Below, piece after piece: positions 3,362-62,431 of a DNA stretch of 64,000 bases; position 1 is the first letter of the stretch; each line of letters begins with the position of its first letter. Position numbers and translations under genes: made by a program. Origin of the DNA: Callorhinchus milii. Its lineage: Eukaryota. The DNA lies in the NCBI RefSeq assembly GCF_018977255.1, contig NW_024704743.1, positions 14,386,001 to 14,450,000 of the forward strand, written 5' to 3'. Under the pieces are notes generated by a model. The model was given only the letters and a program-made list of their open reading frames with translations. It ran no database searches and was not told the origin of the DNA.

Positions 3362-4409
3362 TTCAACTTTCAAAATGGAAATTTTTGGGGGGTCTGCTGT
3401 GTATCTGACCCATCCCCATGCTTAAGAAATCCAAACCAAACTGGGATTTCCATACATCTACACAGGGAAATCCCAGATATAGATTGTTGGAATGGAATGC
3501 GCACTCTCTCCCTGAAGAGACTTATCCTGCTTACCTAATTCTGGGAAGTATTAGGCACAGTTTGGCAAGAAATAAGGCTTGGGGACCTCAGAATGTGTGT
3601 TGGGGAAATGCTGGAATCTAACCAGCTAAAACTGTATTGCTTGTCACTGATATGTCTGTCTGGCAAGTTTCCCACTGCTTGTCCAACTAGGACCACCCAA
3701 CCCATTTGGTGTGCAGTGGGAAACTTGCTGAGTGGGATAACTCCTGCCCCCAGTGACCTGGTCTGCTCTTCCAAGTCGTACCTATGCTGTCATCAGCGGT
3801 GCCCTGGAATACTGTGGACACCACAGAGGGCTGGCTCGATTCTGCCATTCCATTGCCAAGCATCTCACCCTGGAGCCAGTTCAGCTCCAAGGAGACCTGC
3901 TTACCTCCTTCCCAAGGAGAATAGTCACTAGTTGGTCGCTCAACATCCAACAAGCACAGGTTGGAGCCCTCATTCAGTGGATGGTAAGTACAAGGAACTC
4001 CCTGCGAGTTTCCCGGTGGGCAACACATCTCAGCATGAAATGCGTGAGAGGATTGCCACCATCTTCCTACCCGCATCTCGGGCACACATCCCTATCCCAT
4101 TGAGCAATGGTTCCACCAGTTGGAGGTGCGGAGTTCAAGCAGCAGCTGCTTGCCTCTCTGCAGGCCAATTAAGGTGGATTCCAGGCCCTGAATGTGTTCG
4201 CGAACTCGGACTCCAGGTAACACCCTCCTGCGGCTGTCGCCCCAAGCCTCAGAGCTTCTTCATCAGCTATCTGGCAGGCATCTACCTTTAGCATGGTGGG
4301 CGGGCCTTTACAGGACAGTTTGCGACGTGCTAGCCATCTTGATGTTCTCGAGCTCCAAGTTCCAAGTTCAATGCTACGTACCAGGCTAATGGAATTTTGA
4401 GAGGTGGAA
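3362..4409. mobile_element. Unclassified ~1.05 kb interspersed element, probable non-autonomous DNA transposon (copy 1, most complete)
   Basis: Homologous to 15017-15735, 28812-29500 and 38810-39745; imperfect terminal inverted repeat TTCAACTTTTCAAAAT (3362-3377) / ATTTTGAGAGGTGGAA (4394-4409), 13/16 match. Confidence 0.6.
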
Positions 4410-27990: not shown

Positions 27991-28159
27991 GAGGTCGAAT
28001 TTGATCATTCATAATGGCGAGGATCACTTATTAATTTTTAAAATTTACTTGTTCAATTATATTTATGCTAATGTATCTGTCGCCTGATTAAAGGCTTTCT
28101 AAATGTGTTGAACTAGCTCCAAGGTGACATGCTTGGCAAAGGAATGTAAAAATCAAGTC

Positions 28160-28812
28160 AATTTTCTGTGCTCCGCCACAGACTCACACCACAGGCCACC
28201 GAAACCCTCATTCATGCATTCATAACATCCAAGTTTGACTATGCAAACTCCTTGCTTGTCAGCCTCCCCAACCCCTCCCTCCATAGGCTGCAGATCATCC
28301 AGAACTCTGTAGCCCGTGTTCTCTCCCGTACCAGGCGCCATGACCCTATCACCTCCATCCTCGTCCAACTCCACTGGCTTCCCATCACACAGAGAATACA
28401 GTTCAAGATCCTGGTCCTCACCTTCAAAGCCCTCCATGTCCTTGCTCCCCTACCTCTGTGACCTTCTAACCACCTACCAACCTTCCCGCTCCCTCTGCTC
28501 AGCAGGCTCCAGCCTGCTTCGCCTTCCCCACCTCGCCTGCATCACCATTAGTGGACGGGCCTTCAGCCCCTCTACCCCCACCCTCTGGAACTCCATCCTG
28601 CAGTCCCTCCACCTCGCCCTTTCCCTCCTTCAAGACCTGTCTCAAGACCTTCCTCTTCAACCGTGTCTACGATCACCCTCCTTCCCCCACACCTGCCCTC
28701 CACCCTCCCCGATCCCAACCCCCAGCTCGGGTCCAAAACACCGATTGTCCAGCACCTCGGGACATCCTCCTGATGTGAAAGGCAATATACAAACGTAATT
28801 TTGTTGTTGTTG
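28160..28812 (+). mobile_element. L2 LINE 3' end
   Basis: LTPQATETLIHAFITSKFDYANSLL..LHWLPITQRIQFK; (TTG)n tail. Confidence 0.92.
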
Positions 28813-29500
28813 TCGGTAGTCCACTTCCTGAGCCAGACCAATCTGCACCTACGCCAATAATATAATAATAATAATAATAATTCTTGCATTTGATATAGCG
28901 CTTTTCACATCGGGAGGACGTCCCAAAGCGCTTCACAGAACACACTGTAAAGTGAATTGACTGTATATTTGTGGGCGAACGCGGCAGCCAATTGCGCACA
29001 GCAATGTCCCACAAACAGTCGTAGATTGAAAATGACCAATTTATTATTGTTTTTGGTGGGATTATTATTAGGCTGTCTCTCATCCTCACCTACAAGGCCA
29101 TTCACGGCCTTGCTCCCTCCTACCTCTCCGACCTACTATCCACCTACCTACTTGCCCATACCCTCCGTTCCTCTGGCTCCGGTCTGCTATGCCAAGGCAC
29201 TGCTGATGACAGCGCAGCAGCAGAATTCAGAGAATCAGACTGGATATTGGGGGGTAGGGATTCTTCCCACACGGCTCATGTTAACTCTCCAGGCCAAAGT
29301 GCTAATGGGTTGGGTGATCCTGGTTGGACAAATATGGGTTGGAAGTGCACTCAAGTAGTACTCTTAATAGCAAGCTATATGGTTTTACTAGATTGACTCC
29401 AGCAATACCCCAAGCCTTGGCAAAGTGTGCTCCTCCAGGGAGAGAGTGCACATTCTTTTCCAGGGACACAAAAATATCCATGTGGAGGCAGCACACATAT
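28812..29500 (-). mobile_element. Unclassified family copy 3, interrupted by a SINE/L2 chimera
   Basis: Reverse complement shares AATGTGCACTCTCTCCCTG, CCAAGGCTTGGGG and GCTGTCATCAGCAGTGCC with the other copies. Confidence 0.7.
28858..29188 (-). mobile_element. Young SINE (5'-truncated, minus strand) fused to a 110 bp L2 fragment in the opposite orientation
   Basis: SINE 28862-29073; L2 29079-29188 is nearly identical to 17244-17353; flanked by CTACGCCAA / CTATGCCAA. Confidence 0.85.
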
Positions 29501-32305
29501 GTGAAACTTTCAGTCTGACTGGATACTCTGAAGTATGAGTTTCCATATGTTTCAAACGGCAGCTGATCAAACAAAAATATAACAAAGACAGGGGTATCTT
29601 ATGGAAATGTAAATCCTTGCAATCCGTGCGCCTCATAACATCTTTGAATCATCTCAAAGCATTTCACAGAATATACTGTAAAGTGAATTGACTATGGGTG
29701 AACCCATAAAATTATATTTATAAATAAGAATTGAACTATGCTTATGAAGCGTGAGTAGAAAAATGTACTCACAGGAAAGTTACTTTTATCCTGTTTTCTT
29801 GATTGATTCTTGCTTTCCCTTCTTACGTTACGTGGCATCTAGTAATGGCAGAGGATCCACAAGACCTGAAAGAGCTCATCTCCTGGAGGAGCAGATGATG
29901 AATGTCATTTGGATGATATTGAATCAAGGTCCCAGCTGCCGTTTGTCAGGTGGACATTAAAGATCCTATTCAAAAAGAGATGAGAATTTCTCCCTGTGTG
30001 CTGGCCAACAATGCTCCAGATAAATCTGTCATTCATGGCTGTTTGTGCAATCTCGCTGGTGTTTGCCTATGACAATTTGACAGTAATTACTTATAAAAAT
30101 GCTTTGTAATTGGACCATGCTTGATTGACAAATGATTTCCATCTCCAGATCTCCCTTCTGCTCTGTAAAGACTATTCATTATGTCAGCTGTTGAAAAGTA
30201 ATGTAACTTTAAGACTTTATTGCAAGAGGATTTTATTGGGATCTAAGATTTATTCATAATGCAATTCATGTGGAATTGTATTTACATTCATAAATACAGA
30301 GTAAACACAGGCTCATTTGAATGACTTGTTACATCCTAAGCTTCTGTTTAACTACTTTCCTCATTATCATCCTATAATGACATTGGAAATTAATATGTTT
30401 GATATCAAGCACAAGATATATTTAATGTTAATTTGTCATTCTTCCAGGATGGAACAGCTAAAAATTATTTTGTATGTAACGCAGTTCTGAGATCTCAATA
30501 GTCGTTGAAAAAAATCCAACAATTCAAATCTTTACAAGGCTATAGACTGATCTTAATAACATAATGGTTAAAACAAGGAAAATGGTCAATTCAGATCTCC
30601 AATACATGTGGGCTAACAGCCCAATGGTGAACCATGTTCAAACAAAAGTAGGTGCCCTTAATTTCATAATCAACCACCAATAACAGGATTATAATAGATC
30701 CTCTAACCAATTTGACATAGTTGTTATGTTCTCAGCAGACAATGTGTAGAGGAAAAAGAACACTCTTTTATTTTAACTCACAAGTTTCAAATACAAAACA
30801 GTCCAACCAAAAACCTCTCTACTCAATATTCCCTGCTTGCTACTTTTCTACCTCCTGATCCCCTTCCATTGGCTCTAATCAATTGGTCCTTATTGTCTTA
30901 ATGAGTATCCAACAATAGTAATAATAGTTATCCTTGCATTTGAAATAGCGCCTTTCAAATTGACAAGATGTCTCAAAGTGCTTTACAGGATAGACTGCAT
31001 TGCGCAGTCACTGCGTATTTTATAGGCAAATTTAAGCATCTGTGAGATGGTTAACTCATGGGCAATTAGCTCACCTATACGTCAGCTCCCATTGTCTAAG
31101 ATGACCGGTGTACAGAGTGAGGGTCAAATCATATAGGTGTCAGAGCAACAGAATGTATAGAGGCTAATCTCACAGGAGAAGCAGGAACATGGCTGGGCCA
31201 CCTGACAGGATGATAAGCACAGTGCTTCAAATGAGTTCACAGCTTTGCGCCTGGTACTTAAAGTGACAATGGTATGAGGCTTGTATGGCACAGGTTCATT
31301 TCAGGCAGTAACAATGAAATCTCATACGGAAATCAATTATCTGTGCCACATTGCATTAACCAAATATTGGAGGCACTAAACAGGGAATTCAGTGAATGAA
31401 AATGGAGTGAACTGTTTAATTTATTTTAATGTGGGTGGGATATAGAACATTCAACTCACAGCAGGTATGTAGCCAGACATATCCCTACCTTTGTTACAGT
31501 GGTTTCCTGAAACACAACCACTGTGCAGATGGTGTGTGTCCATTTGGGAAAGATTATGCACATCAATGCCCTATTTGTTGGTGCAGCACATTGTTCTTTT
31601 ATTTGAAGGCAGAGTCTGTAGTGGTAATAAGGAGGCTGGTGTTGAGGAGTCATCAGCTATGAACATTCCATGGGAGATGAGAAGACAAGTTTAACAGTGT
31701 CTATTTCAAAAATATTTTGCCAAACGAGTGACATTATGGAAGATTATCTCTGTATGAATTGTGTAGCTGTGAGGTTAACTGAGTTTCTGGATTCACAGGC
31801 ATGGAAAAGGATTACAATATGATGTAAACTCCTTATGTACCTTTTTTGGAATTAAAATCGTTGACAATTTGCCATTCAAAGCACCGGTTATTAATAACTA
31901 CAGAAAAGCTGGAAATCCACAATGGGTCAGTCACCCTCTAAAAGAGGAAAATTACTCATGACATGTTAACCCATTTTTCTCTTTCAGATGCTGTTTTGAT
32001 TTCAGGTTTCCAACATCTGAAGTTTTTGTTATTCTTTCTGCTAATAATTAATGTTGTATATACTTTGGGTGTGCTGTATGTGTAATGCACTTCTCCTGTG
32101 TTGCTGTGCTACTATATACTCTCGTTGCAGCTGCTCAATGAGCAGTGTCAAGCGCTTTGTGACGTCCTCCCAATGTGAAAGGTGCTATATAAATATAACT
32201 TGATTTGTAAAAATTGTATTCTACCACTGTGAGCTCTAGAGTTAAAAGGAGTGTAGAAGTGATGCTACATATATGTCTTGACTGAGCCTGAGGGCTTATC
32301 AATAA

Positions 32306-33147: not shown

Positions 33148-33498
33148 GGATTCCTGTAGCTCAGTGGTTAGAGCACTTGCCTTGCAAGCGAGAGACCTGG
33201 GTTCGATTCCCGGCAGGGTGAAATGTTAGGCAAGTTTCCTTACTCCACACCCCTCTGTTTACCTAGCATAAAGTAGGATTGGCAGATCGTTTTTCCGGGG
33301 GTAATAATTCCTTCAAAAAAATAATAATAATAAATAGATGAATTGGTTACTCAATCCACGACTGTTTGTGGGGCGCTGCTGCTGTGTTTCACCCACAAAA
33401 TATACAGTTAATTCACTTTGCAGTATATTCTGTGAAGCATTTTGAGACATCTCGAAGATGTGATAAAGCGTTATATAAAATACAAGGATTATTATTAT
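33148..33498 (+). mobile_element. tRNA-Ala SINE, full length (long subfamily)
   Basis: Head with GGTTCGATTCCC B-box, CTCTGTTTACCTAGC segment, core and (ATT)n tail. Confidence 0.9.
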
Positions 33499-38809: not shown

Positions 38810-39745
38810 TTTCCACCTGAAAAGAATAATTTCCATAAAAAAGAAATGGCTGAATTTGGATAGATTTTGTTTTGATCACCCAGGTGTTTGACATGTGTGG
38901 AAACCCATCAACATGCTCACGAATATCCAAACCACACTGAAAATTCCATGCATCCCACCTACATATAGAAATCCCAGAGACAGATTGTTGGAATGGAATG
39001 TGCACTCTCTCCCTGGAAGGCCTCAGCCTACTTGTCTAATTCTGAAAAATATTGGACGCATCTTGGCAAGAGCCAAGGCTTGGGGACGCCAGAGAGTGTG
39101 TTGGGATACTGCTGGAGTCTAACTTGCTGAAACCACATAGCTTGCCATTGAGAGTGCTGTCTGGCAAACTTTCGCTGCTTATCCAGCTAGGACCACCCTA
39201 TCCATTGGGGCTTTGGCTTGCAAGGTTAACGGAAGCTGAGTGGACAGAGTCCCAGCCCCAGTGACTGGTCTGCCCTTCCAAGTGATGAGCCAGGCTGGCT
39301 GTGCTGTCAACAGCAGTGCCTGGAATACTGCGGACCTGCCTGGCTCAGAAACTGAATTACTGAGACACCAACGAGGGTGGGCTTGACTCTGACATTCCAT
39401 TGCCAAGCATGTCACATTGTAGCCAGTTAATAATAATAATAATAATAATCCTTGCATTTGATATAGCGCTTTTCACGTCGGGAGGACGTCCCAAAGCGCT
39501 TCACAGAACACACTGTAAAGTGAATTGACTGTATATTTGTGGGCGAACGCGGCAGCCAATTGCACACAGCAATGTCCCACAAGCAGTCTTAGATTGAAAA
39601 TGACCAATTTATTATTGTTTTTGTTTTGGAGGGATTATTATTAGGCGTGTGGAGTAAGGAAACTTGCCCAAGGTTTCGCCCTGCCAGTTCAGCTTCAAGG
39701 AAATCCTCTTTACCTCTCCTGCCCGCAGGAGTAAAGTAGTTGGTT
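38810..39745 (+). mobile_element. Unclassified family copy 4, interrupted by a SINE
   Basis: Colinear with about 3362-3930 (AAATCCCAGA..GATTGTTGGAATGGAATG..CATTCCATTGCCAAGCAT..GCCAGTTCAGCT). Confidence 0.8.
39429..39685 (-). mobile_element. Young SINE, 5'-truncated
   Basis: TSD GCCAGTT at 39422-39428 and 39683-39689; CTCCC-loop tail. Confidence 0.92.
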
Positions 39746-46339: not shown

Positions 46340-48310
46340 AGTACACGCAATTATCCTTTTGCTACCATGTCCTCCCATCCTGGTCTCTGGCACCTAAGCC
46401 ATGACCATCAGCCCACCTCTCCCTCGCCCCACCCTGCACTGTCTCCTGTAGCCCGCGGGCTGATGCTGTCCCGCTGATTGCTCGCTCCCAGTCTCTGCGT
46501 GCGCATTTTGCTGTCACCCTGACCCAAGCCGCTCCTCCTGAAAATGCTCCTCCTCCCACGCTCCTCTATCTGCTACTCCCACTCTGTCATTCTCTCCCAC
46601 CGTCCTCCGCTCCTTCCCTCTCTCCTGGACCCCACCATTACCTCCCTCTGCTCCAGACTGGGCATCCTATACCTGGCCCATCGTGGCTCACAGAATTGGT
46701 TGTCCCAGAGCAGCCAACCGAACTGTCCCATCACTCACTCTCTCCATAGCAACTGGCTCCGAAAGGCAACACCCCTTTCCACTCCCTCATCCATACCTTC
46801 ACCAACATTCCCTGCTCCTCAACCTTCATGGTGATTTCTCCCCCATGACCCCAAATACCACTCTCTCCTCTGTCCACCCTCCCACCAGCAAACCCATCCG
46901 TATTTCCCTACAAAATATCCGTTCCCTCTCCAAAGAAGCCCTCACTCTCCATGACCTCATCCTGGATGAGCACATGGATATTCTTGAGCTTACTGAAACC
47001 TGGCTCTCCCCCAGTGACTCCATCCCCCTAGTTGAAGCCTCCCCTCCTGGCTACACTTTCCATCACACCCCCCACCCTAACCAATTTGGCAGCGGGCTGA
47101 CCTCATCTGCCAAGCTTCCCTCAGTCTAACCCTTTATTCCTCTGGCTGCTTCTTCTCATTTGAGCATCTCATCCTCTACCATCCCTCCTCTCGCTCACTC
47201 AAAATTCTCTTGGTTTACCACCCCCAAAACCCCCTTGGTTCTTTCCTCTCTGATATCTCTGCTCTCCTCTCCCTGTCCCTCTGCTCAGAACACCTGCTAA
47301 TAATGGATGACTTCAACCTCCATCTAAGCTCCCCTTGCACAACAGCCTCAGATTTCACTGCCCTCCTCTCCTCCCTAAACCTCACCCTCCACATCAACTC
47401 GCTGACCCACTACTGTGGCCACTCCCTCGACCTCGTCATCACACATGGCCTCGACATTTCCAACCTGTGCATCATGGACAAGATCATCTCAGACCACTTC
47501 CTCATCTCCTTCTCCTCTTGATTCCCTTTCCCCTCCATCAAGACCTCAACCATACTTTTCCGCCCATGGGAAAGGCTTTCCCCGAGATCTTCACAAAAGG
47601 CCCTCATATCCTCAGACCTCCTATCCCTCTGGCCTTCCACCCACAGCGACCCTGAAGCAGCCATCAAGCTGCTCCATGATCACCTCTCCTCCACCTTCAA
47701 CTCCCTCATCACCCTGAAATCCAGGATTGTCTCCAAACCCACCCTTCCCCTTGTACAACAGCCATCTCCACTGCCTAAAATCTCAAACCCGACTGCTCGA
47801 GCACAGGTGGCAGAAAACCAGCCTCACGGTTCACCACCAGCTGTGGCTCAAGCATCTTCACATTTACTGCCGTTCCCTGTCACAGGCAAAAACTGCGCAT
47901 TACTCAAACATCATACTGGAGGCCAACAATAACTCCAATTCCCCACGCCAACCACCTCTTCTGTGCGCTTCCTTAAGAACCCTCAATCATCACGTCTAAC
48001 ACCAAGTGGGAAGAGGTCATGGACTTCCTTACCTCTAAAATTGAAACATCTGCCTGGCTGCTTCATCTCTCTGCCCAGTGTCGCCTGCCACCACCCCCAT
48101 TCCATCTCCCTCACCCACCCCACCCTCAGCTCCTACCACGGCCCCCATCCTACATTCATTTGCCCCCATCTTTCCTTCCTTCCTCTCATCCACAATGAAA
48201 CCAACTGCCTCGACCACCTCCTCACCCAACTGCTAATCACTCAGCTCCCCCTCTTCTGCCCACTGCACAACGTGAAAGACGCTCTATAAATGTAATTTTA
48301 TTGTTGTTGA
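46340..48310 (+). mobile_element. L2 LINE 5' half with APE endonuclease remnant; RT absent; L2 tail at the end
   Basis: ISLQNIRSL..DILELTETWL..PPGYTF, LIMDDFNLH, THYCGHSLDLVIT and ISDHFLISF are APE motifs. Confidence 0.9.
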
Positions 48311-62108: not shown

Positions 62109-62431
62109 TATAATAATAATAATAATAATAATCCTTGCATTTGATATAGCGCTTTTCACGTCGGGAGGACGTCCCAAAGCGCTTCACAGAACACACTGTA
62201 AAGTGAATTGACTGTATATTTGTGGGCGAACGCGGCAGCCAATTGCGCACAGCAATGTCCCACAAACAGTCGTAGATTGAAAATGACCAATTTAATTATT
62301 GTTTTTTTTGGAGGGATTATTATTAGGCTCTGTGTGGAGTAAGGAAACTTGCCCAAGGTTTCGCCCTGCCTGGAATTGAACTCAGGTCTCTCACTTGCAA
62401 AGCGAGTGCTCTAACCACTGAGCTACAGGAC
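62109..62431 (-). mobile_element. Young tRNA-Ala SINE, full length (short subfamily)
   Basis: Complete element with a long (ATT)n tail and CTCCC-loop hairpin. Confidence 0.93.

Follow-up and report, generated by a model that had tools for sequence, protein, structure and literature searches.

A truncated SINE and an inverted L2 piece within one target-site duplication in Callorhinchus milii: a candidate case of twin priming on two templates

The locus studied here raises the question of how a SINE and a tail-less piece of an L2 element, lying in opposite orientations, came to be enclosed by one pair of short direct repeats in the genome of Callorhinchus milii. The stretch of DNA that was analysed comprises 64,000 nt of contig NW_024704743.1 and is referred to as the window; all positions are counted from its first letter. 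Matches to another place in the window cover 24,207 of its 64,000 bases. No credible host-gene exon was found in the window, where three marginal Pfam matches (E about 0.04) were ignored and short exons would escape, and an Rfam search of the window returned tRNA-like SINE heads only. The chimera discussed below is a real, single and dead insertion at one locus, a promoterless copy for which no function is proposed.

The composite insertion (28849-29195) consists of 9-nt direct repeats, alike at eight of nine positions, that enclose a SINE, a 5-nt filler and an inverted 110-bp piece of L2, as the first-pass annotation had described it; this anatomy was borne out. The left copy of the target-site duplication (TSD), CTACGCCAA, occupies 28849-28857 on the plus strand, and its final 2 nt coincide with the (ATT)n tail of the SINE. 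The SINE (28858-29073, minus strand) is a young, CmiSINE-like element of the tRNA-Ala-headed type that is 5'-truncated, so that the head, which is present in full-length sister copies, is gone. Its 3' (ATT)n tail spans 28858-28883 on the minus strand and presumably marks the first priming site, followed on the same strand by the 3' stem-loop common to L2 tails, with the loop CTCCC (28884-28938); in this copy the stem-loop region agrees with the young L2 tail at 44 of 55 positions and with nine older L2 tails at 37-41. The part from 28862 to 29073 is 93-95% identical to window copies at 39430, 49783 and 62088, the (ATT)n tail continuing to 28858, and compared with these three young copies it carries two private substitutions in 188 aligned columns and a 6-nt deletion. 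The 62088 copy can be matched for a further 27 nt past the tail, which was considered as shared flank; this added stretch is loose and gapped and was judged to be chance.

The filler TGTCT (29074-29078, plus strand) leads to an internal piece from the C-terminal part of a young L2 ORF2 (29079-29188, plus strand), which is 110 bp long, lacks the L2 tail and is oriented opposite to the SINE. It matches 17244-17353 at 106 of 110 positions, in keeping with the near-identity noted before. This match lies in a young, 5'-truncated L2 copy inside an older SINE (16767-17710, plus strand), 11.8 kb from the chimera and referred to below as the neighbouring copy. The right TSD copy, CTATGCCAA (29187-29195, plus strand), begins with the 2 nt CT, a microhomology common with the L2 piece. 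In the composite as a whole, the tailed primary element stands at one end and its partner, in the opposite orientation and 3'-truncated, meets the target end with this 2-nt microhomology, for which the chance expectation is 1 in 16. A second copy of the SINE/L2 join was not found in the 64-kb window, where only the SINE of the chimera, one of 47 SINE or tail pieces, adjoins an L2 piece on the opposite strand.

The L2 element shows ORF2 homology to non-LTR reverse transcriptase proteins, a 3' stem-loop and a short tandem repeat tail. We take it to belong to the L2 clade, a label based on the first-pass annotation and the tail likeness described in PMC5499810. A protein search with the young ORF2 (16767-17450) gave 5362 matches, the best listed being Callorhinchus milii proteins (PF00078) with 77% and 69% identity. 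Proteins of the young subfamily itself were not seen, with none above 77% among the best 240 listed in two protein searches, and metagenome and viral contigs gave 0 matches to the young L2.

The host of the insertion is an old, unclassified repeat, whose left part (28814-28857) and right part (29187-29462) adjoin the insert, the right part being about 70% identical to the paralogs at 38903-39428, 3408-3881 and 15015-15734. An older L2 3' end (28170-28813, plus strand) is an earlier insertion in the same host repeat and lies outside the event. The old repeat is at least 530 bp long, has four copies in the window (3408-3881, 15015-15734, 28109-29462 and 38903-39428) and gave no Pfam match in the frames tested. 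L2/SINE insertions interrupt three of the four copies (15117-15536, 28170-28813, 28858-29188 and 39430-39686).

The two 9-mers differ at one of nine positions and are located exactly at both insert boundaries. Among random pairs of positions 338 nt apart, an 8/9 match was obtained 9 times in 20,000, rising to 85/20,000 with a slack of ±2 nt and to 242/20,000 with ±4 nt. A modelled empty site with a single 9-mer aligns to three host paralogs with a 1-nt gap; the paralog at 3480-3900 used in this alignment has a deletion just past the site. The possibility, raised by the first-pass annotation, that the host consensus already contains the 9-mer twice is contradicted by these three paralogs, which lack a second copy, and its contiguous host element is confirmed by the paralog alignment, in which the repeat runs collinearly through the site. 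The boundary repeats, their null expectation and the single 9-mer in the host paralogs together support one event. For comparison, ten other copies were examined for boundary repeats, which were clear (7 nt or more) in three, weak in four and absent in three; the 7-nt TSD of the copy at 39430 occurs once in the host paralog at 3855-3905.

The exact length of the duplication depends on how the boundaries are drawn. Each repeat shares 2 nt with the insert (CT of the L2 piece on the right, TT of the tail on the left), so the strict TSD is 7-9 nt long, and a 5-nt TSD (GCCAA) with two extra bases is a possible alternative reading. The two 9-mers had been described as differing by one CpG-type transition. 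The single mismatch and its position at the boundary stand; however, all three host paralogs have the letter of the right copy at the mismatch site, and CpG decay in the right copy is therefore not the simplest polarity.

Contigs from four of 23 listed sequencing runs were compared at 85% likeness, two from organism A (X15 and X18) and one each from organisms B and D (X5 and X14). The L2/host join is crossed by contigs covering 29160-29679, with 0 differences in X15 and 1 in X18, and 29 letters on the L2 side, which is 2 below the 31-letter rule for spanning. No contig across the SINE/L2 join was present among the rows listed for the four runs, which were flooded by paralogs, and no empty-site joint was present among the 15 joints listed of 1653, in tables likewise flooded and with the left join masked. 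No clear orthologue was seen in organisms B and D, for which paralogs flooded the comparison. Summed contig depth over 29133-29173 was 652k in X15 and 679k in X18, as against 2.9k and 6.4k in X5/X14, depth not being copy number. At 28941, 29004 and 29023, the SINE letters of the window made up 40-49% of the depth in X15 and 9-15% in X5/X14. Both the SINE and the L2 subfamily therefore appear to have expanded in the lineage of organism A, as far as contig depth, which is not copy number, can indicate.

Three of the 110 sites of the L2 piece depart from the majority letter in X15/X18, which the neighbouring copy carries at all three; where the two differ for the fourth time, all seven older copies agree with the L2 piece of the chimera. 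The ages of the SINE, judged by its private substitutions, and of the L2 piece, judged by these three sites, agree. With the published rate of about 1e-3 per site per million years (PMC5499810), a divergence of 1-3% would correspond, as a rough estimate, to about 10-30 million years.

How could a single event have produced this structure? We favour twin priming on two templates, which we regard as the probable origin of the SINE and the inverted tail-less L2 piece in one TSD, although by a modest degree, and we infer that the L2 template was RNA. The geometry argues for it, with a tailed element from one nick and an inverted, tail-less partner, placed on a 2-nt overlap with the target, from the other. 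The agreement in age, the apparent expansion of both subfamilies in organism A and the L2-like tail and loop of the young SINE point the same way. In such an event, the L2 ORF2p would bind the SINE RNA via its 3' stem-loop, nick the target and, starting at the left end, copy some 215 nt of SINE. Another nick, some 9 nt off, would free the other 3' end, which would pair over 2 nt (CT) inside an L2 RNA, at a point about 355 nt upstream from the 3' end of L2, and be extended by 110 nt, after which the two cDNA ends would be joined. The 5-nt filler may have been copied from another site in the same L2 sequence, where GGATGAG would pair over about 7 nt with CTCATCC, or with CTCGTCC including one T-G wobble. 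The first-pass annotation had proposed twin priming on two RNAs; the single event, the one TSD and the geometry hold, whereas for the L2 template DNA is possible as well as RNA, and a read-through chimeric RNA yields the same outer junctions.

Published systems bear on this reading in both directions. In 5'-inverted L1s, an overlap of 2-5 nt with the target is found in about 70% of cases (PMC2912911), and twin priming has been held responsible for inverted snRNA/L1 chimeras (PMC4476161) as well as for inverted tRNA/L1 and 5S/L1 chimeras (bioRxiv 2025.02.02.635956; PMC13174262). TSDs of L2 elements measure 1-8 nt and up to 9 nt (PMC4245944), and the 9-nt TSD of the chimera fits the long end of this range, as the published argument on overhang length requires. 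Against twin priming, the L2 piece is intron-less and the stretch holds no hallmark of an RNA template, and ZfL2-1 showed no 5' inversion in HeLa or DT40 cells, which its authors attribute to an overhang of about 5 nt, too short for second priming (PMC4245944). Furthermore, about 40% of genomic ZfL2-2 5' junctions contain extra nucleotides, which are largely ascribed to template jumps or flanks (PMC4245944; PMC2666801), so that 5' patching is common in the L2 clade, which also counts against twin priming.

The filler offers a further clue. Together with the first 7 nt of the L2 piece (29074-29085), it forms a 12-mer of which 11 letters agree with the reverse complement of 16768-16779: the minus strand at the join reads GGATGAG, AGACA and then SINE, and the L2 sense strand at 16768-16779 is GGACGAGAGACA. 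The matching site forms the first 12 nt of the truncated neighbouring copy, whose host SINE resumes on both sides. With a random breakpoint and a random filler, the tip of this copy would be hit in 17 of 836,608 cases, a post hoc figure for one locus. At the same 11/12 level, 28 of the 1024 possible fillers match somewhere in the 947-nt copy, and a full-length L2 would give several-fold more. The filler may be templated, an option absent from the first-pass annotation; alternatively, it can be read as SINE letters with a 1-nt slip and a duplicated CT.

The mismatched position, 16771, is T in two of three older L2 copies. Its codon, which follows Trp, encodes Met in 178 of the 196 homologues with the motif, the remaining 44 of the 240 listed homologues being without the motif, and Thr, as in the neighbouring copy, in one C. 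milii protein. A truncation hotspot in L2 at this codon would be an alternative source of the filler match. Shared stalling at an RNA helix between 16768-74 and 17244-50 was considered and rejected, as the predicted pairing probability is 0 in the copy as it stands.

The only respect in which the tip of a truncated copy stands out is that it was the free 3' end of the cDNA, which suggests concurrent insertions. As a variant counted within twin priming, and one that we hold to be rather doubtful, the SINE at 28.9 kb and the L2 at 16.8-17.7 kb would have inserted simultaneously, with use of the same L2 RNA, making the neighbouring copy a candidate coupled insertion. The second end at the SINE site would prime inside the shared L2 RNA, and the resulting 110-nt cDNA would pair end-to-end with the first-strand cDNA of the neighbour, at the latter's 3' tip and over about 7 nt, thereby gaining 5 nt. 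Both sites would then close in cis, with no rearrangement.

Of the explanations that compete with twin priming, the one that survives best, although we consider it unlikely, is a templated patch: at the 5' junction of the SINE, a free target or cDNA end would have copied 110 nt and then 5 nt from an integrated L2, by means of a host repair polymerase or a template jump of the reverse transcriptase. The source would most simply be the neighbouring copy, as DNA or local nascent RNA, and both borrowed stretches are indeed present in it, 11.8 kb away; 5' extra nucleotides are also frequent in the L2 clade and often flank-derived (PMC4245944; PMC2666801). However, the L2 subfamily is very abundant, so nearness alone weighs little, and templated insertions beside human L1 typically come from within 15 bp. 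The 96% identity of the neighbouring copy was rejected as a sign that it is the source, because no private variant is common to it and the chimera among the four differences examined. Nor was a credible host-gene exon found that could supply nascent RNA, as only a LINE endonuclease piece scored well among 101 frames, and the coincidence of the filler site with the neighbour's exact 5' end is left unexplained.

That last coincidence is equally unaccounted for by a read-through chimeric RNA, a quite unlikely origin in which a truncated SINE lay antisense in a young L2 elsewhere and a transcript ending at the SINE tail was retroposed by L2. A 5' truncation 110 nt into the antisense L2 would leave the same TSD and the same 2-nt microhomology, and ordinary target-primed reverse transcription would suffice. 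A nested arrangement is not without example, since a truncated older SINE (24439-24544) lies in an older L2 (24229-25091), there on the same strand; the join itself, however, has no second copy in the 64-kb window. Two events, in which a SINE first arrived with its TSD and its 5' end was patched by repair at a later time, are very improbable, as are misjoined repeats in the assembly. The SINE/L2 join and the left join are not among the contig rows listed, and the L2 piece is nominally more diverged (3/110) than the SINE (2/188); but a later patch must strike the junction to the base while sparing the TSD, contigs of two samples cross the L2/host join and reach 29 letters into L2, and the host repeat runs through the site without loss of collinearity.

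The closest known parallels to two-template twin priming come from human L1, of which two-RNA chimeras are described with inverted U5, U1, U2 or U6 (PMC4476161) and with antisense tRNA, 5S, mRNA and, as minority partners, Alu (bioRxiv 2025.02.02.635956; PMC13174262). As in these, the present chimera has one TSD and an opposite, 3'-truncated partner with short complementarity to the target end. In the human chimeras, L1 provides the tailed 3' part and the inverted part is the passenger, whereas here the SINE is tailed and the LINE inverted; moreover, the element belongs to the L2 clade, of the stringent type, and the TSD is shorter. Tumour L1 insertions with “twin priming and 3' switching” (bioRxiv 2024.08.27.596794) are alike in having a short, non-inverted piece of distant LINE RNA at the inversion join, and the synchronous insertions of the same study resemble the coupled variant in that cDNA ends of concurrent insertions pair in trans. 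Those tumour events are somatic, involve L1 only and are usually resolved as translocations or inversions, in contrast to the fixed-looking genomic copy described here, in which both hosts are collinear and the trace amounts to at most 5 nt.

Within the L2 clade, the 5' junctions of ZfL2-1 and ZfL2-2 resemble this one in microhomology, in extra nucleotides at the 5' end and in short TSDs of 1-9 nt (PMC4245944; PMC2666801). With ZfL2-1 no 5' inversion was seen (PMC4245944), while here the “extra” amounts to 115 nt and is an inverted LINE. The literature searched, which was mostly non-subscription and whose supplements may list cases, contained no report of a tailed SINE joined to an inverted piece of LINE in an L2 system.

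A genomic chimera of an L2 system with a 9-nt TSD fits the published short-overhang explanation (PMC4245944) and makes it testable, as this explanation predicts that inverted chimeras are confined to long TSDs. Twin-primed by-products are known from human L1 and would be unusual for L2. If the coupling were true, the LINE RNA would have been physically present at the SINE insertion and two insertions would have come from one particle, which has so far been described for L1 in tumours (bioRxiv 2024.08.27.596794); the locus would then preserve, as a germline fossil, twin priming by a stringent L2, with SINE and LINE coupled in one ribonucleoprotein. If it were false, the chimera would be one more dead by-product of a SINE-L2 partnership that is already known.

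This partnership has been published for Callorhinchus milii (PMC5499810) and is shown better by the shared tail than by the chimeric junction, which adds little; the earlier view of the chimera as a direct footprint linking this SINE to this L2 was accordingly overstated. The young SINE resembles the CmiSINEs SINE2-1_CM and SINE2B-1_CM and their relation to L2-2_CM in its Ala-tRNA head and in the overlapping activity times. The published CmiSINE tail is 78.6% like an L2 tail (PMC5499810), compared with 80-82% here. In the parts of that description compared, junction structures, inversions and a change of loop between SINE subfamilies are absent.

The tail of the young SINE is identical to the young L2 tail at 17646-17700 at 44-45 of 55 positions, as opposed to 36-41 of 55 for nine older L2 tails, and folds into the same hairpin, with a compensatory pair (U-A vs C-G). 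All five young SINE copies caught by the motif (9212, 28927, 39495, 49933 and 62178) have the loop CTCCC or CTTCC, as in L2 tails. Older SINE tails have NAGAA or TCGAA in eight copies (667, 22548, 24495, 32553, 33440, 38653, 49340 and 57605) and other loops in two, and among the L2 tails caught in the 64-kb window none has an NAGAA loop. In zebrafish L2s, the tail loop determines specificity (PMC4176376). The difference between young and older tail loops suggests that the SINE subfamily switched or retuned its LINE partner.

Some further features of the repeats were observed. At the point where the SINE of the chimera is cut, a full-length young SINE has a 3-nt insertion (62325-62335) and an older copy, at 33150, is longer by about 45 bases; this point may be prone to indels or to stalls of the reverse transcriptase. 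In the neighbouring young L2 copy, about 40 nt of the pyrimidine-rich 3' UTR are tandemly duplicated (17520-17625). Finally, a LINE piece at 46542-48310 matches the endonuclease domain PF03372 with an E of 1e-4, which is below the curated cut-off, has an L2-type tail close after this domain (48270-48306), and is possibly an internally deleted L2.
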